Positions 4,510 through 32,083 of a stretch of 64,000 bases of DNA are shown in pieces (positions within the stretch are counted from its first letter, which is position 1; every line of letters starts with the position of its first letter). Below the pieces are notes generated by a model. That model ran no database searches. It was not told the DNA's origin and saw nothing but the letters and a program-made list of their open reading frames with translations. The translations under genes were made by a program, and so were the position numbers. The stretch is from a virus. The stretch is taken from positions 32,001-96,000 of IMG/VR virus record IMGVR_UViG_3300048999_000056, one strand, 5' to 3'.

Positions 4510-5138
4510 GCGGAAGCCTTGCTGGCAGCTCGGCGACGATCGCCGCACTCATTGGTGCGGACGTTCTTGAGGAAGTGTTCCTGCAGCCTCACAGGACCAT
4601 CGGGACCATCATTCCCGAGTGCGCCGTGGAGGAACATCATTCGGACCGATTACAGGTCACACAGCATCCGATCGAGATCGGCGCCAATATCTCCGACCAT
4701 GCCTACATGCTGCCTTTCGAGGTCACGTTGCGCTACGGTTGGTCGAACGCGTTGATCGGTGGACAGATACAGAACCTTGGCGATCGGTTCGCGGCGATCG
4801 GCAGCGAGAGTTTTCAACAAGTGATCTCGGGCGGCCAGACCGCCGCGATCTACGAGCATCTGCAGCAGCTGCAAGCGTCGCGCATACCCTTCAGGATCGT
4901 GACGGGCAAGCGCACCTATGCCGACATGCTGATTACGGAAATGGGTGTTACGACCGACGCGCGCACGGAGAACGTGCTGATTGTCGAGCTACACTGTCAA
5001 CAGATTATCAGGGTTTCGACCAGCTCTACGCCCGCAGCGGCGGCGCAGGCGATGCCGGAACAGACAGGTGACGCTATCAACACCGGGAACCAGCAGCTTA
5101 CGCCGGTTCCCGGTGGTGCCGTGACGGGTGTCGCTTAG
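4506..5138 (+). CDS. Baseplate organisation / tube-initiator-like protein
   Basis: EEHHSD.L.VT.HPIE.GA.ISDHAY..P and IVTGKRTY..MLI motifs. Confidence 0.7.
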   Translation: MSGSLAGSSATIAALIGADVLEEVFLQPHRTIGTIIPECAVEEHHSDRLQVTQHPIEIGANISDHAYMLPFEVTLRYGWSNALIGGQIQNLGDRFAAIGSESFQQVISGGQTAAIYEHLQQLQASRIPFRIVTGKRTYADMLITEMGVTTDARTENVLIVELHCQQIIRVSTSSTPAAAAQAMPEQTGDAINTGNQQLTPVPGGAVTGVA

Positions 5139-5785
5139 TGGACGAAGTTGCAGGCTAGGTGCGCTGTGCCGTAGTAGTCGGAACCCATGCCGCGATACGA
5201 GCTGAGACAGCTATCCCAGAGCATCTGCTGGCTCTGTGCCGTGGCGCCCGCCGCGCCGCCAGGATGGCGTTGACAGGCGCCCTGATCTCCATAGTAGCAC
5301 GTGATGGCGTCGCGGTTCTGTTGGGCTTGTGCGGCGATTGCGTCCTTCTGCGCCTGAGGCAGACAGCCGGACGGATTGTAGCTGTTGCAGACGTGGTTCT
5401 GATTCGCCTTGTGATACTCGGTTGCCAGCTCGCGATTGTTGATCGTCGCCTTGTCGCTTTCCCATTGCTGGCAGGTCGCCGAGCCTTGGGCGTAGGGGCA
5501 TGACTCCGGAGCAGCCCAGCCGGAGCCGGCATACAGCTTGCGGACTTCAGCGTAGGACATCGTGCCGGTGATCTTCGGCGGGCACGATCCGGCTGGTGGA
5601 CCGCCCGGTTGTTGATGGTAAGGCACTGGCCGCCCGGTCTGTCCGTCAACAACGTTCGTGCAGCCTTTGTCGGCGAAACCGCCCGTGTGGTGCCACTCGT
5701 TCCATGCGGAATACGGGTGACCGAAGCTGCCGTCAGCATTGCAGCCGGCGAGGGTGATGCAGGCGGTGAGGATCAAGGCGCGCAT
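5135..5785 (-). CDS. Cys-rich lipoprotein, antisense moron in the baseplate operon
   Basis: Signal peptide with lipobox LAGC; many Cys; opposite strand to neighbours. Confidence 0.6.
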   Translation of the reverse strand: MRALILTACITLAGCNADGSFGHPYSAWNEWHHTGGFADKGCTNVVDGQTGRPVPYHQQPGGPPAGSCPPKITGTMSYAEVRKLYAGSGWAAPESCPYAQGSATCQQWESDKATINNRELATEYHKANQNHVCNSYNPSGCLPQAQKDAIAAQAQQNRDAITCYYGDQGACQRHPGGAAGATAQSQQMLWDSCLSSYRGMGSDYYGTAHLACNFVH

Positions 5786-6132: not shown

Positions 6133-6882
6133 ATGGACTATCGCGAGCGCTTCCACGACCCGCAGGAAGCCTTACGGGCCGCCCTGGGTAGTCATCAGGC
6201 TTCCGTCTGGACAGCCCTGCCTGGCATCGTCCAGAGCGTGGATTTCGCCAAGATCACGTGCACCGTCCAGCCCGCGATACAGGCCCAGCAGGTCACGCCG
6301 GACGGCGAACGGAACAACGTCAACATGCCGCTTCTGGTTGACGTGCCGATCCACTTCCCCGGTGGGGGCGGTTACACGGCGACGTTTCCGTTGAAGGAAG
6401 GCGACGAATGCGTGGTGGTGTTCTCGTCGCGCTGCATCGACAATTGGTGGCAAAGCGGCGGCGTGCAACCGCCGTTTGAGCAACGCATGCACGATTTGTC
6501 CGATGCCTTTGCCGTTCCGAGGATTTGGAGCCAACAGACCAAGATCAGCAATATCTCCGATAAGACGGCGCAGCTGCGTAGTGACGACGGCACGCGATAT
6601 GTCGAACTGGACACGCCGAACAAGAAGGTTCGCGCGGTCACGGATACCGTTGTGATCGAGCTGGACAGCAGCAGCGGCAAGGTGACGGTGACGGCTCCGA
6701 CTGAGGTTCATGTTGAATGCCCCCTGGTCACGCTGAGCGGCGACCTGCACGTCTCGGGTGCCGTGATCGGTGGCTACGGCGGGGGCGATCAGGTGGGCTT
6801 GCAGACGCATACGCATACGCAGCCAAACGACACGCACGGCGATGGCGAGCTACCAACCAGAGCACCGACGGCAGGCACGTGA
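6133..6882 (+). CDS. Baseplate central spike (Gp138/gpV-like)
   Basis: TALPGIV...VQPAI...LVDVP..FP.GGG...GDEC.V.F..RCID.WW..GG...R.HDLSDAF; C-terminal HTH (His-x-His) metal-binding tip. Confidence 0.85.
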   Translation: MDYRERFHDPQEALRAALGSHQASVWTALPGIVQSVDFAKITCTVQPAIQAQQVTPDGERNNVNMPLLVDVPIHFPGGGGYTATFPLKEGDECVVVFSSRCIDNWWQSGGVQPPFEQRMHDLSDAFAVPRIWSQQTKISNISDKTAQLRSDDGTRYVELDTPNKKVRAVTDTVVIELDSSSGKVTVTAPTEVHVECPLVTLSGDLHVSGAVIGGYGGGDQVGLQTHTHTQPNDTHGDGELPTRAPTAGT

Positions 6883-7019
6883 TGGCAGACGATAACGATG
6901 ACTGGAGAAATCCGTTGCTCGGCACAACCGGCGTCTTGGCTGTCGTCATGGTGATCGGTCTGGCAGCTCTCGGGATCGGCGGATTGACGACGCTTATTCG
7001 TTGGGCGGTGACGCCATGA
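6882..7019 (+). CDS. Small membrane protein
   Basis: 45 aa with one hydrophobic helix; coupled start/stop overlaps on both sides. Confidence 0.45.
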   Translation: MADDNDDWRNPLLGTTGVLAVVMVIGLAALGIGGLTTLIRWAVTP

Positions 7020-7465
7020 GATATCGCAAGTTGACAGCGTCCGGCGATATGCAGTTCGGCCAACAGCAAGCCGACTTCTGGATCAACACGCCTGAAGCGG
7101 TGGCGCAGGCTGTCCAGACGCGGTTGCAGCTGCAGCTTGGAGCGTGGTTTCTCGATACGGATGACGGCATGGACTGGCAAGGGTCCGTGCTCGGCAACAG
7201 AACCTCGCCGATTCGCGACGCCACGATCCGCGCTCGTGTGTTGACGACGTTTGGCGTCAATTCAATCGACGGTTATGCATCAGGCTTCAATCCGAACAAC
7301 CGAGCGTTCGCGGCGCAGTTCTCGTTGGATACCATCTACGGCAAACTCGATCTGTTGAAGACAACATTCTTGACGCCGACCGGCCCACGTCCGCCGATAC
7401 CACCATTTAACGTTGGCGCTAACGTGTTGAATGACACGCAGGTCAACGTCACCTGGAGCGGCTAA
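7016..7465 (+). CDS. Baseplate wedge (gp25/gp46-like) with C-terminal half-FN3 extension
   Basis: MRYRKL...GD..FG...AVAQAV.TRL.L..G.WFLD...G; tail PPIPPFNVGANVLNDTQVNVTW resembles FN3 strands A-B. Confidence 0.75.
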   Translation: MRYRKLTASGDMQFGQQQADFWINTPEAVAQAVQTRLQLQLGAWFLDTDDGMDWQGSVLGNRTSPIRDATIRARVLTTFGVNSIDGYASGFNPNNRAFAAQFSLDTIYGKLDLLKTTFLTPTGPRPPIPPFNVGANVLNDTQVNVTWSG

Positions 7466-9667
7466 ATGTCAGGCACAACTACCTATCAAGTCCGCTACCG
7501 CGTCAAAGGTTCAACGACGTGGATCAACTATGGCCAGCCGATAACGGACTTGACCGAGGTCATATCCGGGCTGAAACCCAACACGACGTATGAAATGGAG
7601 GTTGTCGCAACCAATCCGCAAGGTGCGGTTGCATCGAACATTATCACGTTTACCACTGGCAGTTCGGTGCCGCCATCGGTGCCCGGCCTGCCGATCGCCA
7701 GCGGGATCAGTACGACATCGCTTGTGCTCAACTGGCCGGCATCGTCCAGCGGTGCCCAACCGATTTTGTACCAGCCGCAGTTCCGGGTGCACAATACTGG
7801 TAGCTTCGTCAATGTCGGTCTGCAAAGCCTGTCGCAATCAGTGACGGTCACTGGTTTGTCCGCGAGCACAAGCTACGATTTTCGGGTGATTGCCACCAAC
7901 AGCAACGGATCGGCGACTTCTGCAACCCTGACGGTCAGCACGGCGGCGATCGGCACTGCGCCCAGCTCGCCAACCAGTCTACGGGCAACAAACGTCACGG
8001 CGAGCGGCCTGACATTGTCCTGGGTAGGTTCAACAGGCACGCCACCGATCACCTACCAGCCACGCTACCGTCTTGCAGGCACGACCAACTTCGCCACGTT
8101 CGGCCCGGCGATCAGCGGCACGACCGTCAACATTACTGGATTGGCGGCGAGCACCAATTACGAATTTCGGGTGGATGCAGTCAACTCTGTGTCCGCAACA
8201 CCTTCAGCGATCTTGCCGGTCACGACGATTGCTTCGACCATTGCACCTTCGGCGCCAAGCGGGCTGACTGCGAGTAATCAGTCGCAGACTGGCATAACGG
8301 TGTCGTGGGCTGCCTCGACCGGCACGCCAGCGCCGACGTATCAGCTACAGTATCGTGTCGGCGCGACCGGCGCATTTGCCAACTACGGCGCGCCGATCAG
8401 CGGCACGTCTGTCAACGTGACAGGACTGGTAGCGAGCACGACATACAACTTCCAGGTTGTGGCGTCCAACAGCGCCGGTTCTGCGACCTCGACGGTCCTG
8501 TCGGCTGCGACGACCGGCGCACCTGTAGCGCCATCCGCGCCGCTCAATCCAACGGTTGGCACGGTGACAAGCAGCTCGATCGCGGTGTCATGGACGCATC
8601 CGGCACAGGGCACCGATCCGCTGCAATATCAGTTGCAATGGCGCCAGCATCCGGCGGCAGGTTCTGTCGCCGGCTTGTTCAATGAAGACTTCAGCGCGCT
8701 CGATATCAGCGAAACAGGCGGCGCCGTTCCGTCTGCGACGATTACACCGGCTTCCGGCGGCTCGATCACCGATCCATCCGGCAACGTGTGGACGATTAGC
8801 AGCGGTGCTGTATTCGAGAATGGATCGGCTGCAGGTTTTACGGCCAATGTTGCAGAAGTGGCATTGGTCAACGGCGTTATCTGGCACGAGAACAACACTA
8901 ACCAGTGGTATTCGTGGTCGCCACCTTCAACGTGGAACCCCGGCACCGATCCGACCGGCGGAACCGGAACCGGCGCCTGGACGAATCACTACGCGTTCGG
9001 TGGTTCCGAGTATACGCTATCGGCGAACAACGAGGCTCAGTACTACGCCAGTTCTACGCGCACGCCGGGCTTCAATCCGTTCTCAGTCTCCGGCGGCGTG
9101 CTGACGATCACTGCCGACAGTGTGGCGCATACCGTTGCCAACCCGCTTGGGCTGCCATACAATTCCGGTGCGATCATATCAGCGCAGGAGAGCAATGGCT
9201 CCCCTGCGCCCGGCCTGTTCTCGCACATGTACGGCTACTTCGAGGCGCGATGCCAGCTGCCGAAAGGGCGCGGGCTGTGGCCGGCATTCTGGTTGCTGCC
9301 GTTGACTGGTGCCGGCGAGATCGATATCTTCGAACAGCTCGGCAATGATACAACAACGATCTACTGTTCGCTGCATGCGACGGTGGGCGGTGTCGGCAAC
9401 ACGGTGTCGCTGGGCTTTGATGCGTCGGCGGCAATGCATGTTTACGGCTGCGATTGGCAAGCTGACTTCATAACTTGGTATGTCGATAACGTCCAGGTAG
9501 CGCAGGCGCCGACGCCAAGCGACATGATCGGCAAGCCCTACTATATTCTCTTCAACTTGGCTGTCGGTGCTGCTGGTTCCTGGCCCGGCCCGCCTGACGG
9601 CACGACAGTCTTCCCAGCCCGCATGCAGATCGATTATGTCCATGTCTTCGACAAGAGGCCATTCTGA
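7466..9667 (+). CDS. FN3-repeat virion protein with GH16 (ExsH-like) glycanase
   Basis: Tandem FN3 repeats (W...Y..GL...T.Y.F.V.A.N); GH16 motifs YGYFEAR, GLWPAFWLL, EIDIFE, H.YG.DW, MQIDYV. Confidence 0.85.
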   Translation: MSGTTTYQVRYRVKGSTTWINYGQPITDLTEVISGLKPNTTYEMEVVATNPQGAVASNIITFTTGSSVPPSVPGLPIASGISTTSLVLNWPASSSGAQPILYQPQFRVHNTGSFVNVGLQSLSQSVTVTGLSASTSYDFRVIATNSNGSATSATLTVSTAAIGTAPSSPTSLRATNVTASGLTLSWVGSTGTPPITYQPRYRLAGTTNFATFGPAISGTTVNITGLAASTNYEFRVDAVNSVSATPSAILPVTTIASTIAPSAPSGLTASNQSQTGITVSWAASTGTPAPTYQLQYRVGATGAFANYGAPISGTSVNVTGLVASTTYNFQVVASNSAGSATSTVLSAATTGAPVAPSAPLNPTVGTVTSSSIAVSWTHPAQGTDPLQYQLQWRQHPAAGSVAGLFNEDFSALDISETGGAVPSATITPASGGSITDPSGNVWTISSGAVFENGSAAGFTANVAEVALVNGVIWHENNTNQWYSWSPPSTWNPGTDPTGGTGTGAWTNHYAFGGSEYTLSANNEAQYYASSTRTPGFNPFSVSGGVLTITADSVAHTVANPLGLPYNSGAIISAQESNGSPAPGLFSHMYGYFEARCQLPKGRGLWPAFWLLPLTGAGEIDIFEQLGNDTTTIYCSLHATVGGVGNTVSLGFDASAAMHVYGCDWQADFITWYVDNVQVAQAPTPSDMIGKPYYILFNLAVGAAGSWPGPPDGTTVFPARMQIDYVHVFDKRPF

Positions 9668-12600
9668 TGCCAAATCTGACGATCAACCTCGGGTCGCTGA
9701 CAGGTAAGACTGTCCCGGCTGCTCTGTATGGTTTCTCGACTGGCGCGCTCGCCGACAACGGCTTCGCCAATGCTGCAGCTACTGCCACGAAGAATGCGTT
9801 GACAACAATCAAGCCGACGCTTGTTCGCGTCAATGCAAACCAGCAAATTCCGGAGAAATACGGAACCGGCAACACCGGCTACACCAACAATTGGTGGAAC
9901 AACCGGGCTGCCTTCATGGACCCAAACCATACTTTTGTCATGTCGGCCGGTCCTTCGTCTGACACCGGCTTGCCTTACTCGGCCAGTCAGGAAGCGACGT
10001 ATGCTTCGAATTTCGCAACTGCAATGCGGAATGCTGGTCACGAGATAACAACTTGGGAGATTGGCAACGAGTCGCTCAACATCTTGCCTGATGTTGCGAG
10101 CTATCTGAATTATTACCTGCCGATCGCTCGCGCTCTGCATACTGTTAATGCCAACTATAAAGTTGGCGGTCCTGCCACGACATGGTGGGGCGCCTATGAT
10201 CCGGCGCAGTTTGCCAATGGTGTTGCGGCCGGTGACTGCGACTTCTACGAGTTCCACGCTTACAACTTCCAGGGCGTAACCGATCATGCGTCCATCTACA
10301 ATGGTGCCAAGAACTTCGGCGATGCAGACTCCATTCGGACCGCTCTGCGAAATACGAAGCTGGCGAATGTGCCGATCTTCCTGTCGGAGTGGAACCTCGA
10401 CGGTGACTTCAATACCAATCCTGGCATTCAGATCACCTATGTAGGCGCCATTGCGGACGCATTGCTGTCAACTCGTATGTGGCAAGGCGATCCGAACATT
10501 ATGGGCGCCGCTTACTGGGATGCTATCAGCGATCCAAAGTTCGGCGCGATTGAAACCAACGGACAGATCAACCCGCCTGGATACTACCTAGGCTACGCCG
10601 GTCAGCACATGCCCGGTGCAGAGGTCACGGTCTCCGGTGTGTCTGGCAATCTGCAAGTGCTGGCGACGAAGAACGGCAGTAACGTTGCAATTCAGCTCGT
10701 CAATTACGATACAGCGTCTGCGTCAGCCAACAACATCACCTTGACTGGTGGACAGCCGTCCGGTGCGATTACGCGTTGGGAGATCGGCAAATCTAATCAG
10801 TCAACGCCGAATGTCTCGACGCAAGCCAGCCTGTCCAGCGTCAATGTGCCGTCTGAGCAAATCGTCATTCTGACCTTCAGCACGGCAGCAGCGCAGCGCT
10901 CGTTGACGGTCAACGCGATAACAGGTGCGCAAGTCGGTTCGACATTTACCGTGTCCGGCACACTGACAAACTTCACGTCGGCCCCGACGCTGCTCTATTC
11001 TGACGATGGCGGCGGCACTCAAGCGCTGCCGGCCGGCGCGAATGTGACTGCAACATCATACAGCTTCACGCATCCGGCGCCGACAATTGCCGGCAACCAT
11101 ACGATCGTCGTGACTGATGGCACCAACTCGGCATCCGCGACATACAGCGTCGTTGACATCACGTGGCAGTCGCGACCGTTGACAGGCTCACTGTCCGACA
11201 CCGTGACAGGACTGGCGCCCTCGACCTCCTACGACTTCCGTGTATCGGCGCAGAACTCGCTCGGCAGCGGTCCGTTCTCAACCGTCGTCACGCGCTCGAC
11301 CGGCACTGTCGCGCCGACGTTGCCGGGTGCGCCTGTAAGCGTATCGTCTTCTGCTGTCTCGTCGTCTTCGGTGACGGTGACATGGGGGGCGCCGACGACA
11401 GGCAGCGCGCCGTTCACCTATCGCGTGCAGTCCTCCCCGGCAGGCTTGGGCACCTGGACCAATCGAGGGACAGGGGTTTCGGGCACAAGCCTGCCAGTGA
11501 CCGGTCTGGCAGCCGCTACGAGCTATGATTTCCGGGTATTCGCCACGAACAGCGTCGGCGAGGGTCCGGCGTCTTCGACTTACAACGTCTCGACCACGAC
11601 AGCGGCAGCAGCAGTTACGTGGGACCCAGCCAACATCGGCGGCGGCGCGACTTTGTCCAACAGCAACCTGACGGTGACAGCGAACGGTTCCACGACACCG
11701 GGCACAGCCTTTCAGGGTGTGCGTAGCACAGTCTCTCAATCGGCCGGCAAACTCGCCTTTGAAGTGACGACAAATGCCTTGACGCAGGACATGGAGATTG
11801 CTCTCGTCAATGGCAATCATGCCCAAACGACTGATGCTGGGGAGGATCAGCTCAACGGCATCGCGTTTTATCCCAGCGGCGGCGGTGGTAGTCAGGCGCC
11901 GATGTCGGTCTACCAAAATAGCGTTCAAGTGCTGGTCCCTAGCGGCTCGCCGATCTCGGATAGCCCCGGTTCGATTGTGACATTCTGCGTTGATCTGACA
12001 GCCCGGTTGTTCTGGGTTACGAGTAACGCGATGCGTAGCGTCTACGGCGCGTCAGCCTGGAATGATAGCGCCAGTGCCAATCCGGCAACCGGCGTTGGTG
12101 GCATACCGATCAACATCACGGGTGCATTGTTTATCTGCTTCTTTTCCTCAGAGGGCGGTGCAGTCGTCACACTCAATGCCGGCTCGTCCACATTCTCCAC
12201 TTTTGTTCCGTCCAGCTTCGCGGCCTGGGGCGGAACAGGAGCAATCACCGCTCCTGGTGCTGTGACAAGCCTGAGTGGCAGCCCGAGTTCTACAAGCGTG
12301 CAGCTGACCTGGAGCGCACCAACGATCGGCACAACGCCGTTTACCTACCACATGCAGATGTCGCCGACCGGCACCAACACGTGGTCTGATCAAGGCACGT
12401 CTTCGTCGGTATCCGGCACCGTTGCAGGTCTGACGCCTGGGACTGGTTATGACTTCCGCGTCTATGCTGCGAATGCAGCCGGCAATGGCGGGTTCTCCAA
12501 CACGATCACGGTCAGCACGACTTCCGGCGTCTCGGGCACGACGTTCGACGAAGAGTTTGGCACGCTGAGCCTACTCAATACGCGCAACACGGCGGCGGGC

Positions 12601-14526
12601 GGCACGTGGCAGCCGGCAGTCTGGTATACTGATGCAAACGGCAGTCCTGATGGCTACGGGATCGATGACGGCTGGTTTGTCAATCCATTCAACCCGGCGA
12701 CGCCGATCAACGACATATATACGATCGTCAGTGGCTCTTTGAACCTCGCGATCGAAGCCAAGCCGGCAAGCGTCGCTCCCTCGGCTGTCGGCAACAAGCC
12801 TTACATGACTGGGCAGCTGCAGACACAGCCGACATTTCGGCAAGCAGGCGGCTACTTTGAAGCGCGGCTTGCCTGTCCGAAGTTGGATGGAACCATGTTC
12901 GCGTGGTGGTTCTATTCCGACAACGGCAACCAGATGAACCTGGAGATTCCGACCGTCCAGGGCGGCGGTCAGTTCGCCAAATACAGTCTGTGGAACCAGG
13001 GCTCGCAGGCGATCGTCAACGAGTTCTACAGCTACAACATGGCGAGCCCGATCGACTGCACGCAATTCCACACTTACGGCATCGATTGGAACCCGCCAAC
13101 CGGACTGATGACGTTCTACATCGATGGCGCACAGGTTATGCAGGCGCCGATCCCGGCCGGCTTCACCGATCCGATGTACATGCTCTTGTCGAGCTACACA
13201 GGTTCGGCCGGCTGGTATGGTTCGATCACCAATCCTGCCGGGTTGCCGATCAAGATGCAGGTTGACTACGTGCGCGCATTTCCGATCGGGCATGGTCCTG
13301 GTAGCGGTGTTGCCGCGCAACCTGTCACGACGTTCCTGAGTTCGCTTGGCGTCAACGTCCATATCGATCAGGGTTTCAGCGCGAACTCATATATCACACC
13401 GCTGCAGTTCACCGGGATCAAGAACATCCGCACCGGCTACAGCAACATTGGCGGTGCCGTGACGGCGCACAACTCAGCCGGCGTAATGGTCAACGTGTTC
13501 GGTTCGTCTGATCTCACGAGTCACCTTGCAGCAGCGCGGACTCTTGCCACCAACGGCGCGCTGCTATCAATCGAAGGACCGAACGAGCCCAACAATTTCC
13601 CCTTCAGCTACCTGGGCAATCAGGGCGGCGGCTCGGGCACATGGGTCCCGGTAGCGCAGTATCAACGCGATCTTTATGCAGGCGTCAAAGCCGATAGCCA
13701 GCTGCAGAACTTCCCCGTGTTCCACGTTTCTGAGGGTGCCGGCGAGACGGACAACGTTGGCATGCAGTTCCTGACGATACCGAACGGCGCCGGTATCGCC
13801 ATGCCTGACGGCACGAAGTATGCCGACTATGCCAATCCGCACAACTACGTCTCAGGCAATCTGGGCGGTCAGTATGTCAACAACACGGCATGGAACGCTG
13901 CCGATCCGACATTGAACGGCTCCTGGGACGGGCTCTATGTGGAGTATGGGCGGACGTGGCGCGGCGGCTTTGCCGGCTACAGCAATGCGGACTTGCAGAC
14001 GTTGCCACGCGTCACGTCAGAAACCGGCTGGGACTCGACCTCGCTTGGCGAGACGATACAGGGCAAGGTTCTGCTCAACACCTACCTCGCGCAGTTCAAG
14101 CGCGGGTGGCGCTACACGTTCATCTATGAAATGTTCGACCAGGAAGCGTCATCGGGCAACCAGGGGCTGTATCGCAGTGACAAGGTGACGGCGAAGCTGG
14201 CCGCTACCTACATTCACAACATGACAACGATATTGGCTGGCGGGTCGAACATCGCCACGACGCCGCTTGCCTATTCGATCGCCAACCAGCCGGCGACTGT
14301 GCACGATCTGTTGCTGCAGAAAACCGGCAACGTCTATGATCTGATCGTCTGGGGCGAACAGGTATCCGGTTCAAACAACGTGGTTGTCAACCTTGCGGTG
14401 GCACGTTCCTCCATCAAAGTCTTCGATCCGACTGTCGGCACGGCTGCTGTGCAAACGTTGACAAATGCCAGCTCCGTGACGCTTTCGGTGAGCGATCATC
14501 CCTTCATCATAGAGATCACGCTCTGA
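9667..14526 (+). CDS. Large multidomain appendage: clan GH-A hydrolase, Ig-like, FN3, SPRY-like, degenerate GH16, second GH-A hydrolase
   Basis: WEIGNE / FLSEWN and IEGPNEPNN / TSETGW catalytic pairs; FN3 repeats; GGYFEAR...FHTYGIDW...MQVDYVR. Confidence 0.75.
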   Translation: MPNLTINLGSLTGKTVPAALYGFSTGALADNGFANAAATATKNALTTIKPTLVRVNANQQIPEKYGTGNTGYTNNWWNNRAAFMDPNHTFVMSAGPSSDTGLPYSASQEATYASNFATAMRNAGHEITTWEIGNESLNILPDVASYLNYYLPIARALHTVNANYKVGGPATTWWGAYDPAQFANGVAAGDCDFYEFHAYNFQGVTDHASIYNGAKNFGDADSIRTALRNTKLANVPIFLSEWNLDGDFNTNPGIQITYVGAIADALLSTRMWQGDPNIMGAAYWDAISDPKFGAIETNGQINPPGYYLGYAGQHMPGAEVTVSGVSGNLQVLATKNGSNVAIQLVNYDTASASANNITLTGGQPSGAITRWEIGKSNQSTPNVSTQASLSSVNVPSEQIVILTFSTAAAQRSLTVNAITGAQVGSTFTVSGTLTNFTSAPTLLYSDDGGGTQALPAGANVTATSYSFTHPAPTIAGNHTIVVTDGTNSASATYSVVDITWQSRPLTGSLSDTVTGLAPSTSYDFRVSAQNSLGSGPFSTVVTRSTGTVAPTLPGAPVSVSSSAVSSSSVTVTWGAPTTGSAPFTYRVQSSPAGLGTWTNRGTGVSGTSLPVTGLAAATSYDFRVFATNSVGEGPASSTYNVSTTTAAAAVTWDPANIGGGATLSNSNLTVTANGSTTPGTAFQGVRSTVSQSAGKLAFEVTTNALTQDMEIALVNGNHAQTTDAGEDQLNGIAFYPSGGGGSQAPMSVYQNSVQVLVPSGSPISDSPGSIVTFCVDLTARLFWVTSNAMRSVYGASAWNDSASANPATGVGGIPINITGALFICFFSSEGGAVVTLNAGSSTFSTFVPSSFAAWGGTGAITAPGAVTSLSGSPSSTSVQLTWSAPTIGTTPFTYHMQMSPTGTNTWSDQGTSSSVSGTVAGLTPGTGYDFRVYAANAAGNGGFSNTITVSTTSGVSGTTFDEEFGTLSLLNTRNTAAGGTWQPAVWYTDANGSPDGYGIDDGWFVNPFNPATPINDIYTIVSGSLNLAIEAKPASVAPSAVGNKPYMTGQLQTQPTFRQAGGYFEARLACPKLDGTMFAWWFYSDNGNQMNLEIPTVQGGGQFAKYSLWNQGSQAIVNEFYSYNMASPIDCTQFHTYGIDWNPPTGLMTFYIDGAQVMQAPIPAGFTDPMYMLLSSYTGSAGWYGSITNPAGLPIKMQVDYVRAFPIGHGPGSGVAAQPVTTFLSSLGVNVHIDQGFSANSYITPLQFTGIKNIRTGYSNIGGAVTAHNSAGVMVNVFGSSDLTSHLAAARTLATNGALLSIEGPNEPNNFPFSYLGNQGGGSGTWVPVAQYQRDLYAGVKADSQLQNFPVFHVSEGAGETDNVGMQFLTIPNGAGIAMPDGTKYADYANPHNYVSGNLGGQYVNNTAWNAADPTLNGSWDGLYVEYGRTWRGGFAGYSNADLQTLPRVTSETGWDSTSLGETIQGKVLLNTYLAQFKRGWRYTFIYEMFDQEASSGNQGLYRSDKVTAKLAATYIHNMTTILAGGSNIATTPLAYSIANQPATVHDLLLQKTGNVYDLIVWGEQVSGSNNVVVNLAVARSSIKVFDPTVGTAAVQTLTNASSVTLSVSDHPFIIEITL

Positions 14527-14527
14527 T

Positions 14528-15736
14528 ATGTCCGGCACGATAACAACAACGCCCATCTGCACCGTAGATCGGCTTGGCATTCATGCGCCAAGCTATCAGG
14601 ACGTGCTGTCCTATTTGCAGCAGCAGTACCAAGCGATCTACGGGGCCGATGTCTATCTCGGGAATGACAGCCAGGATGGCCAGTTTCTGGCCGTGCTCGC
14701 GCTGGCTATCCATGACACGAACAGCATGGCAGTCGCGGTCTACGGGGCGTTCTCGCCTGCCACGGCGCAAGGTGCCGGTCTGTCATCGGTGGTCAAGATC
14801 AACGGCATCCGCCGGCTGATCGCGACCAACTCCACCGTTGACGTTGTGCTGGTCGGACAGAACGGCACGACGATCCTCAACGGCATTGTGCGCGATGCGA
14901 ACGGCAACAATTGGCTGCTGCCGCCGTCTGTGACGATCCCCCCTGCCGGACAGGTGACGGCGACGGCGCAGTCAGCCAACCCCGGCGCTGTCTCGCTCGC
15001 GGCGCGCGGCATCGATACGTCGAACGATGCCGGCACGATCCTGACGCCGACGCGTGGCTGGCAGAGTGCCAGCAATCCGTTGCCGGCGGTGCAGGGTGAT
15101 CCGCTGGAATCGGACGCAGCACTGCGCCAGCGTCAGACTGTCTCAACGGCGCTGCCGTCGCAGACTGTGCTCGATGGCATTGTCGGCGATGTTGCCAGCG
15201 TGCCCGGCGTGCTGCGCTATCAGGTCTACGAGAACGATACCGGTGTAACCGATATCAACGGCATACCACCCCATTCGATTGCGTTTGTGGTGGACGGTGG
15301 CGACGCCAGTCAGATTGCCCAAGCCATTGCGTTGAAGAAGACACCGGGCAGCCCGACCTACGGCACCACGACTGAAATCGTCATCGATGATCAAGGCACC
15401 GGGCATTCGATCAACTTCTTCCGGCCGACACCGGTTCCGATCACGGTCGCGATCACGATCGCACCGCTGGCAGGCTTCACGACAGCGACAGAGGCGGTCA
15501 TTGTCCGCGCCGTGGCTGACTACATATCGGCGCAACCGATTGGCATAGACGTGCTGCTGACCAAGCTGTATTCGCCGGCCAATCTGACTCCGCCTGTCGG
15601 CAATACGTTCAACATTGTGTCGCTGGCAATTTCGCGATCCGGCACGCCGACGGCGCAGGACGTGCCTATTGCCTTCAACGAGGCGGCAATTTGCACCACT
15701 GACAACGTAACACTGACAGCGCTGGTCAACCCGTAA
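14528..15736 (+). CDS. Baseplate J-like protein
   Basis: IYG.D.YL..DSQDGQ, A.G.GL...VKINGI.R, ESDA.LR.RQ, VYENDT...D.NGIPPHSI. Confidence 0.9.
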   Translation: MSGTITTTPICTVDRLGIHAPSYQDVLSYLQQQYQAIYGADVYLGNDSQDGQFLAVLALAIHDTNSMAVAVYGAFSPATAQGAGLSSVVKINGIRRLIATNSTVDVVLVGQNGTTILNGIVRDANGNNWLLPPSVTIPPAGQVTATAQSANPGAVSLAARGIDTSNDAGTILTPTRGWQSASNPLPAVQGDPLESDAALRQRQTVSTALPSQTVLDGIVGDVASVPGVLRYQVYENDTGVTDINGIPPHSIAFVVDGGDASQIAQAIALKKTPGSPTYGTTTEIVIDDQGTGHSINFFRPTPVPITVAITIAPLAGFTTATEAVIVRAVADYISAQPIGIDVLLTKLYSPANLTPPVGNTFNIVSLAISRSGTPTAQDVPIAFNEAAICTTDNVTLTALVNP

Positions 15737-31080: not shown

Positions 31081-32083
31081 TGCTGTTGACTACGTCCCAC
31101 AAGCCCCAGTCCAGACCGTTGGAGTTCGGCGAGGAGGGCCGCCCCTCGCCGACGCCGACCTGCATACCGGCAATCGCCATCAGGTTGACCACGTCGGTTG
31201 CCGAGAACTGCCGCGCGTCCCAGCGGACGGTCACGGCGGCGTTCCACTTTTCCCACATAGGCCGGTGGCGGATATCGGCAACGCCTGATGCGTTGCGGGC
31301 TGGCGCCTCGTGCAGCCGTGGCGTGCCGTTGATCTTGACGAGCGGCTGCCCATCCTGATCGAGTCCGTCCGGCACGATGAACAACGACAGCTTGGCGCGT
31401 GTCATCGTGAAGCCGGCAAGGCGGCACGCGTCAATCATCGCGTTGCGGAAAGCCGGCGCCGGAATGCCGTGCCATCCGTCACGCGCGATATGCTGCGCCA
31501 GACGGTAGATTTCTTCGAAGTCCTTCGGCTCGCGACGGCGGCGTGACTTTTCGCCCTGCGAACCCGCCTTCTGCCGCTCCACCATCATGTTGACGGCTTT
31601 CTGGCTGAATTTGTGTTGCACGTAAGGCGTAGAGCCTCTGATGTAGACGATGCCGCGATCGAACTGCGGCGGTTGAATGACGACGCGCGTCACCTTGCCG
31701 CTCAACACGCCAACCGTGCCTTGCTCCATGGTGCTGTCGAGCGTTTCGATCGGGATCGGCGAGGCGGGTATCCTGCCGAAATTGTCGGTGTTGCGCATTG
31801 ACGGCCCGGCTACTGCACCCTTGCCGTTCTTGCCCTTGCCGTTCCGACCGATCGTCGCCTCACGTTCCGCCAGCAGGTCCGCAACCGGATTGCCGCCAGC
31901 GTGCGCCGCCTCGAATGCGGCTTTCTGCTGTCTCTCGTCGCGTGACATAGGTCCGCGCTTGCCGGGCTCGCGTGCCCAAACGGCCGGCTCAACGTCTTCG
32001 ACTGCGGGAGCTGTCCCCCTCTGCGCCAGCTTCTTGGCCTTCAATGCCTTCTTGGCGCTTTTCTTGTCCTTCAACGTCGTCAT
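31073..32083 (-). CDS. Stand-alone RAMP/Cas7-like protein, candidate RNA-guided effector
   Basis: IRGSTPYVQH first strand, GIPAPAFRNAMIDAC helix, RPMWEKW, terminal Gly-rich loop AGMQVGVGEGRP...WG.W; start MTTLKD with GAGGGA RBS. Confidence 0.7.
   Translation of the reverse strand: MTTLKDKKSAKKALKAKKLAQRGTAPAVEDVEPAVWAREPGKRGPMSRDERQQKAAFEAAHAGGNPVADLLAEREATIGRNGKGKNGKGAVAGPSMRNTDNFGRIPASPIPIETLDSTMEQGTVGVLSGKVTRVVIQPPQFDRGIVYIRGSTPYVQHKFSQKAVNMMVERQKAGSQGEKSRRRREPKDFEEIYRLAQHIARDGWHGIPAPAFRNAMIDACRLAGFTMTRAKLSLFIVPDGLDQDGQPLVKINGTPRLHEAPARNASGVADIRHRPMWEKWNAAVTVRWDARQFSATDVVNLMAIAGMQVGVGEGRPSSPNSNGLDWGLWDVVNSNA

Follow-up and report, generated by a model that had tools for sequence, protein, structure and literature searches.

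A fibronectin type III domain split between a phage sheath initiator and a glycanase appendage protein: a candidate docking device for the contractile-tail baseplate

Here we describe a gene junction in a soil phage at which one fibronectin type III (FN3) domain is divided between a baseplate protein and the enzyme-bearing protein encoded next to it. The window, by which we mean the whole stretch of 64,000 nucleotides that was analysed, comprises positions 32001–96000 of a 112,818-bp viral record (IMGVR_UViG_3300048999_000056) that is rated complete by CheckV; features lie on the plus strand of the window unless stated otherwise. The gene for a gp25-like sheath initiator (7016–7465) ends with FN3 strands A and B, and the following gene (7466–9667), in the same frame, encodes a 733-amino-acid FN3-array/GH16 protein that opens with strands C to G. 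Probably, the two polypeptides complement one another in trans, and the single FN3 domain so formed docks six glycanase appendages on the baseplate. We favour this reading because the split is conserved among relatives, the two parts occupy complementary coordinates of an FN3 hidden Markov model (HMM), both parts are constrained, the downstream protein carries no other anchor and a precedent exists in phage phiTE.

A preliminary description of this DNA had reported an FN3 domain split across an in-frame TAA-ATG, with strands A–B and a conserved Trp upstream, strands C–G downstream, and a GGAG ribosome binding site for the second gene; the open reading frames (ORFs) and profile matches bear out each of these points. 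The initiator ORF starts with ATG at 7016, runs for 149 amino acids to the residues VNVTWSG and stops with TAA at 7463–7465, and the ATG at 7466–7468 is the directly following codon in the same frame. When the TAA is read as a residue, the stretch 7370–7660 matches Pfam fn3 (PF00041) over profile positions 2–75 of 84, with 37.4 bits against a cut-off of 25 (E 3e-9), and a match above the gathering score is obtained solely with the stop read through. One FN3 domain therefore spans the stop codon, with the junction lying in the loop between strands B and C. The GGAG Shine-Dalgarno motif of the downstream gene (7455–7458) stands 7 nt before its ATG and is built from the codons for Trp147 (TGG) and Ser148 (AGC) of strand B, so that the sequence directing initiation of the second gene also encodes part of the first half of the domain.

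The upstream protein had been labelled gp25-like, and this label not only holds but can be made more precise. Residues 6–115 match phrog_120, ‘baseplate wedge subunit’, at 4.6e-23, and a profile of the clade (alignment A3) matches several solved sheath initiators, namely 7kh1 gp15 (XM1-type; 3e-13), 9zd7 gp87 (2.9e-13), Pam3 gp21 (2.4e-12) and that of phiTE (6e-8). A current Pfam-A scan of the window initiator itself gave no match; its homologues carry a precomputed PF10934 label. Taken as a whole, these profile matches point firmly to a sheath initiator. The phrog_120 and solved-structure matches mark out a core at residues 1–109 (7016–7342). At 149 amino acids, the protein exceeds the compact single-domain form of the family (~115–130 amino acids), and residues 110–149 lie outside the family core. 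They comprise a variable, Pro-rich linker (residues 110–126; 7343–7393), whose length differs between members of alignment A3, and the FN3 A–B tail (residues 127–149; 7394–7462), which includes the invariant Trp147 (7454–7456). Both linker and tail are missing from ordinary homologues of 117 amino acids. Within the tail P127, V133 and W147 are invariant in 16 sequences, and positions 121–152 of the clade profile weakly match contactins, RPTP-F and titin, in each case at the opening strands of an FN3 domain. A TTG at 7001 was considered as an alternative start of the initiator gene and rejected, since the homologues all have the Met of MRYRKL as their first residue.

The downstream protein of 733 amino acids carries five FN3 units ahead of its catalytic domain—one truncated, three complete and one half—followed by GH16. 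The truncated unit, at the extreme N-terminus (residues 3–64; 7472–7657), covers strands C–G and matches positions 30–91 of 92 in a local FN3 HMM. Next come the three complete domains (residues 70–349; 7673–8512), which match Pfam fn3 at 1e-38 and the local HMM at full length over residues 70–160, 165–254 and 260–349. A half-domain with strands A-B-C (residues 355–398; 8528–8659), matching local HMM positions 1–44 only, runs into the GH16 glycoside hydrolase, whose best Pfam stretch is at residues 568–724 (9167–9637; PF00722 at 9.3e-23, 81 bits against a cut-off of 22). We propose that the three-FN3 array acts as a flexible stalk with GH16 as its working end, where it presumably degrades host exopolysaccharide. 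Seven residues of the truncated FN3 (Y7, R10, Y11, R12, W19, Y42 and G53) are invariant across relatives. Neither Pfam nor the local FN3 HMM detected any other N-terminal anchor domain in this protein.

Is this arrangement peculiar to one assembled contig, or is it a heritable property of a group of phages? A homologue search of 5.8 billion proteins returned the ordinary 117-amino-acid forms together with a clade of forms of ~150 amino acids at 53–91% identity. In all, 16 wedge homologues, with 50–91% identity to the window protein, end 0–8 residues after the strand-B Trp, and two of them from independent metagenomes, P0002 (91%) and P0003 (76%), end at exactly the same residue as the window initiator. 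Viral contigs gave no match when scanned with one sequence as the query; when alignments were used to scan viral and metagenomic contigs, six further distinct loci with DNA were obtained. In all six the next gene opens with strand C, three to eight residues after its Met. The seven distinct junctions, with the frame of the next gene in brackets, are TAA followed at once by ATG in the window (0), TAG-c-ATG in L002 (+1), TGA-g-ATG in L003 (+1), an ATGA overlap in L004 and likewise L005, L006 and L084 (−1), TGA plus 4 nt in L007 and L085 (+1), TAA plus 12 nt in L082 (0), and TAG plus 11 nt in L083 (−1). Every one of the seven splits the domain in the B–C loop and has its own ATG, at spacings from −4 to +12 nt. 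The domain that PF00041 describes on one chain is accordingly encoded on two, with the boundary in the same loop at 7/7 junctions and the two parts out of frame at 5/7. What is conserved is where the domain is divided, and not the frame of one gene relative to the other. Stops, spacings and frames (0, +1 and −1) all differ among the relatives, and the TAA-ATG of the window, with its two genes in frame, is therefore a coincidence, one of three frame states in equal use.

These comparisons bear directly on whether the stop is real. The stop is in frame and a single base change could create TAA, so that one might suspect a mistake of sequencing or assembly, or else a fused gene that acquired a nonsense mutation very recently. 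Given that P0002 and P0003 end at the same residue, that six further junctions split in the same loop and that no fused homologue was found, we assign this explanation a negligible probability. The preliminary description had allowed for an assembly error and for recent gene fission, and had suggested checking whether homologous loci are fused or split at the same point. All seven junctions are split in the B–C loop and none is fused, which disposes of both ideas: independent metagenomes carry homologues ending at the same residue, and the same split is present in relatives that are 50–60% identical, with no fused form. A profile search of 1.84 billion representatives, with no length filter, returned no initiator fused to a complete FN3, nor did a length-open word search, which is weak evidence by its own terms. 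Searches of cultured phages by tblastn and blastn gave matches to FN3 arrays or the wedge core only, with no close relative, and a scan of 185,579 reference genomes gave no prophage with the FN3 tail.

It could also be argued that the functional product is a fusion of the two ORFs made by recoding, through read-through of the stop in the window and L082 and ribosomal frameshifting in the other relatives. In the window and L082 the ORFs are in frame with no intervening stop. At L003 (positions 5090–5105) the sequence is ATC CCC TGA G ATG and the gene that follows is in the +1 frame; a site of the CCC_UGA type serves for +1 shifting in the Listeria phage tsh gene. Programmed frameshifting is well known from Ig-like extensions of phage proteins, and among related phages +1, −1 and in-frame decoding can replace one another (Atkins et al., 2016, PMC5009743), so that the differing frames are by themselves no proof against recoding. 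Nevertheless, no XXXYYYZ heptamer or homopolymer run is present at any of the seven junctions (the window reads GGC_TAA_A), and a recognised +1 site is found at one of the seven only, that of L003. The windows in which the two frames overlap measure 5–40 nt at most junctions and 175 nt in L083. Stop and start are set apart by four extra codons in L082 and by 11 nt in L083, and the loop is lengthened to 13–14 residues, as expected of free termini. An ATG is kept 3–8 codons before strand C in every lineage, which a pure extension would not need. TAA, the stop used in the window, is the strongest and least leaky of the bacterial terminators. We therefore regard a recoded fusion as very unlikely to be the functional product; occasional stop read-through, one of the mechanisms suggested in the preliminary description, does not stand as a designed mechanism, as frames vary and the window junction shows no recoding signal. 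The junctions lead us to see the conserved mode of expression in independent initiation, which is probably coupled to termination. A minor fusion product in some lineages is possible.

To place the two halves on a common scale we used a local FN3 HMM of 92 positions, built from the intact second FN3. The wedge tails of the relatives match at positions 2–24/29 and the downstream N-termini at positions 30/33–91/92 (window, L002, L003, L004 and L007), so that the coordinates of tail and downstream part are exactly complementary. Constraint was gauged from the mean pairwise identity by region, dN/dS (the ratio of nonsynonymous to synonymous substitution rates) being unsuited to lineages so diverged and a tail so short. 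The initiator core stands at 64%, the linker at 26% and the A–B tail at 48%; the truncated FN3, at 48.4%, is indistinguishable in this respect from the intact neighbouring FN3 at 48.8%. Both halves are thus under purifying constraint of the kind seen in FN3 domains.

This pattern is relevant to the possibility that the split is no more than a scar of recombination, in which FN3-coding repeats served as crossover points for insertion of a gene cassette, the halves are inert, and the appendage is anchored otherwise or is not bound to the virion at all. The cassette that carries the appendage genes is clearly inserted relative to the gene order of Magia-like phages (discussed below), several other half-FN3 units occur in these proteins, and phage Ig-like domains are thought to spread by non-homologous recombination (PMC5009743). 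Inert halves would be expected to decay, yet conservation of the tail is almost double that of the linker beside it, and the truncated FN3 has diverged no further than an intact one. Even between lineages with only 50–60% identity the Trp, Tyr and Pro residues of the core do not vary, and the break falls at the same HMM position in all lineages. Across 160 loci, each FN3-tailed initiator is followed by a truncated-FN3 start, a recurrence well beyond chance, and no lineage has kept one half and lost the other; about 150 of these loci have the 117-amino-acid initiator, followed directly by a Baseplate_J-like gene of 390–410 amino acids. An inert scar thus seems to us an unlikely explanation for the split.

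Structure prediction is consistent with a single domain built from the two parts. We folded the natural read-through (7370–7960) as a single chain with AlphaFold2 (AF2), using an alignment (A6) whose first part is covered by tails and whose second part is covered by downstream N-termini. The model shows canonical tandem FN3 domains with strands A–G and a mean pLDDT (predicted local distance difference test) of 92. Strands of the tail are at model residues 13–19 and 25–30, and beyond the junction loop, which has a pLDDT of ~76 and lies between well-predicted strands, come strands C–G and the second FN3. In a Foldseek search, this model aligns at full length to tandem FN3 pairs in the PDB (E 4e-13). 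The hallmarks of a seven-strand FN3, a core Trp in strand B and Tyr in strands C and F, are represented by the invariant W147, Y7, Y11 and Y42. When the downstream fragment was modelled alone, the truncated domain reached a pLDDT of 76–91 per block, against 91–97 with strands A–B present, and strand E was lost. The models indicate that the FN3 halves are structurally compatible, and hint that the C–G half depends on strands A–B.

Several observations weigh against trans-complementation and should be set beside this. AF2 predicts the C–G half fairly confidently on its own, which makes an independently stable five-stranded module possible, and folding both parts as a single chain speaks to their predicted compatibility and not to binding in trans. 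The wedge tail of the window initiator itself falls below the reporting threshold of the small local FN3 HMM, although Pfam fn3 covers this tail in the read-through. In addition, three homologues, P0010 (233 amino acids), P0012 (246) and P0103 (204), keep strands A–B and the Trp and then continue for 45–95 unrelated, non-FN3-like residues; these may be overlapping-frame extensions or a different C-terminal module.

Each half might also have a different partner, with the N-terminal FN3 completed by some other element, such as the A-B-C half at residues 355–398 of the same or a neighbouring 733-amino-acid chain, and the initiator hairpin bound elsewhere in the baseplate. The spare A-B-C half of the 733-amino-acid protein makes this conceivable, and beta-strand exchange is common among baseplate proteins, for example in the hinge sheets of the sheath (PMC11972413). 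L003, L004 and L007, however, have the tail and the truncated N-terminal FN3 without a spare A-B-C half, and on this ground the conserved pairing is that of the tail with the N-terminus. Furthermore, strand C would be present twice if A-B-C were joined to C-G, whereas the halves complement each other exactly in the pairs A-B/C-G and A-B-C/C′-G. We consider a change of partners improbable, and return to pairing of the initiator tail with the N-terminus of the appendage protein as the basis for what follows.

The A-B-C half (8528–8659) has a candidate partner of its own. Residues 506–543 of the 1619-amino-acid protein encoded by the next gene (11182–11295) form an orphan half-FN3 with strands C′/E–G that matches local HMM positions 53–89 only. 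The two halves are separated by GH16, the gene boundary, a GH39-like domain and an Ig-like domain. The same second half-pair is found in L002, at residues 359–396 of L002:8464-11331 and residues 115–151 of L002:11352-14348, and the local FN3 HMM detects none in L003, L004 or L007. The latter L002 protein also contains FN3 halves in cis, at residues 474–521 and 839–873 (HMM positions 2–50 and 58–91), separated by 317 residues. These in-cis halves represent a domain nested in the C–C′ loop of an FN3, which shows that large insertions are tolerated at this loop. The second pair may accordingly be a second joint in trans, or a nested domain that has been broken by a gene boundary. As a tentative extension, which we regard as possible rather than likely, the proteins could form a daisy chain: strands A-B of the initiator would complete the N-terminal C-G unit of the 733-amino-acid protein, whose own A-B-C strands (residues 355–398) would in turn be completed by the C′-G strands of the 1619-amino-acid protein (residues 506–543). 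Were this so, three gene products would be joined only by trans-complemented FN3 ‘snap fasteners’, a previously undescribed and genetically portable docking principle for virion proteins.

How might the first joint work? We envisage two separately translated virion proteins, each carrying a complementary part of one FN3. In the sheath initiator, the variable Pro-rich linker of ~17 residues would carry the A–B hairpin to the periphery of the baseplate, where, during tail assembly, the hairpin would insert into the incomplete C–G sandwich and complete the domain. The completed FN3 would then fasten one FN3-stalked, glycanase-tipped appendage to each of six sheath initiators. With stop and start so close together (−4 to +12 nt), translation of the two genes would be coupled, and the partners would be made in roughly equal amounts. 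By homology to solved baseplates of its family, the sheath initiator should be present in six copies per baseplate. Fragment complementation that docks the appendage was among the alternatives offered in the preliminary description, and it is the one that the evidence favours; we infer association in trans, a location at the baseplate periphery and a 6:6 stoichiometry.

The genomic setting fits an appendage that was added to an existing baseplate module. A spike gene (6133–6882; PF18352) precedes the sheath initiator gene, and the 733-amino-acid protein gene is directly followed by that for the second appendage protein of 1619 amino acids (9667–14526; GH39-like, FN3 and GH16-like). Then come the Baseplate_J wedge protein (14528–15736; PF04865 at 1.8e-8), a DUF2612 protein and a fibre. 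The initiator therefore sits after the spike and before Baseplate_J, as expected, but two appendage genes intervene. The closest annotated phage, Burkholderia phage Magia (NC_070954), has the order hub, spike, 117-amino-acid sheath initiator, Baseplate_J, gpI-like and fibre. With this Magia/SEN34-like myophage module the window shares the order of hub, spike, sheath initiator, Baseplate_J, gpI-like/DUF2612 and fibre, and a wedge core that is ~52% identical. The two differ in that the Magia initiator lacks a tail and its gene abuts Baseplate_J, whereas the window initiator has the linker and half-FN3, with 7 kb inserted after it. Because the Magia initiator gene abuts Baseplate_J directly, the 7-kb, two-gene glycanase cassette is clearly best read as an insertion between the two.

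Some smaller features of the module may be recorded here. The genes for the 733- and 1619-amino-acid proteins overlap by one base (TAATG, 9664–9669), which suggests translational coupling along the whole appendage cassette. On the minus strand at 5135–5785, between hub-region genes and 5815, lies a 216-amino-acid ORF with a lipoprotein-like signal at its start that ends in a Cys lipobox. Its position matches that of a small reverse-strand gene in Magia, and it may be a moron. Between the spike and sheath-initiator genes a 45-codon ORF (6882–7019) encodes a hydrophobic, membrane-helix-like stretch and has no Pfam match. Other initiator homologues have C-terminal tails unrelated to the one described here: L009, L010, L011 and L020 (176 amino acids), L036, L103 and L123 (164–166), L140 and L147 (167–182), and L030 and L100 (141). 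A fibre-like protein (846 or 513 amino acids), and not Baseplate_J, is encoded after the initiator in L036 and L123.

The fastening of peripheral enzymes and fibres to contractile-tail baseplates is known for few phages, in which it relies on dedicated N-terminal anchors or, in phiTE, on a helix. If the docking reading is correct, it describes a new and very simple device: a core protein of the baseplate bears a tag of two strands (~23 residues), and the cargo bears a receptacle of five. It would explain how a Magia-like module could take up a 7-kb glycanase cassette while its wedge proteins stayed as they were. The C-terminus of the sheath initiator may be a general adaptor site for peripheral proteins, as would be suggested by the existence of several other classes of tail. 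A natural pair of tag and receptacle might also be used to attach cargo to the tails of phages or to tailocins. The case carries a warning for annotation as well, namely that adjacent in-frame ORFs sharing a domain need not be pseudogenes or recoding sites.

How does this compare with known systems? The closest precedent appears to be phiTE (PDB 9CUY/9MJN), in which the C-terminus of the sheath initiator extends to the outer wedge and there adds a fourth helix to the bundle at the N-terminus of the long tail fibre, forming the ‘rip-cord bundle’ (PMC11972413). The initiators are homologous (E 6e-8 with the A3 profile), and in both cases a C-terminal extension beyond the gp25-like core supplies, or in the window is predicted to supply, a missing element to the N-terminus of a peripheral appendage. 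The phages differ in what is given and to what: phiTE donates one helix to a trimeric helical bundle of a fibre, whereas in the window two beta-strands would be donated to a monomeric FN3 of a glycoside-hydrolase appendage, and the contact is predicted.

A second parallel is the donor-strand complementation of chaperone-usher pili, in which a pilin lacking its C-terminal strand G is filled by the N-terminal extension of the next subunit. There too an Ig-like fold is encoded incomplete and completed by the strand or strands of another polypeptide, and the resulting non-covalent joints in pili are very stable. In the window, by contrast, the FN3 lacks its N-terminal strands A–B, and these would be given by the C-terminus of an unrelated protein, with no chaperone, polymerisation or homology involved.

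Thirdly, Ig-like or FN3 domains are added as C-terminal extensions by programmed frameshifting in phages T3 and A2 and in the Listeria phages PSA, A118 and A500 (PMC5009743). As here, a domain of the Ig superfamily comes after the 3′ end of the gene for a phage structural protein, and the frame relation varies among relatives. In those phages, however, a slippery or CCC_UGA site precedes the entire domain, which has no start of its own, while in the phages described here the boundary cuts the domain, an ATG is present in every lineage and 6/7 junctions are without a shift site. As for FN3 itself, Dutta, Batori, Koide and Koide (2005, Protein Sci 14:2838) reportedly described high-affinity reassembly of one FN3 from two separate engineered fragments. 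That system is synthetic and made from human fibronectin, whereas the split FN3 described here would be its natural, conserved counterpart, encoded in the genome and used in virion assembly. For a natural split FN3 or Ig domain serving as a docking device in a phage baseplate, we found no direct precedent in the literature. The underlying principle, then, has precedents; a natural FN3 encoded in two genes for docking in the virion would be a new form of it.

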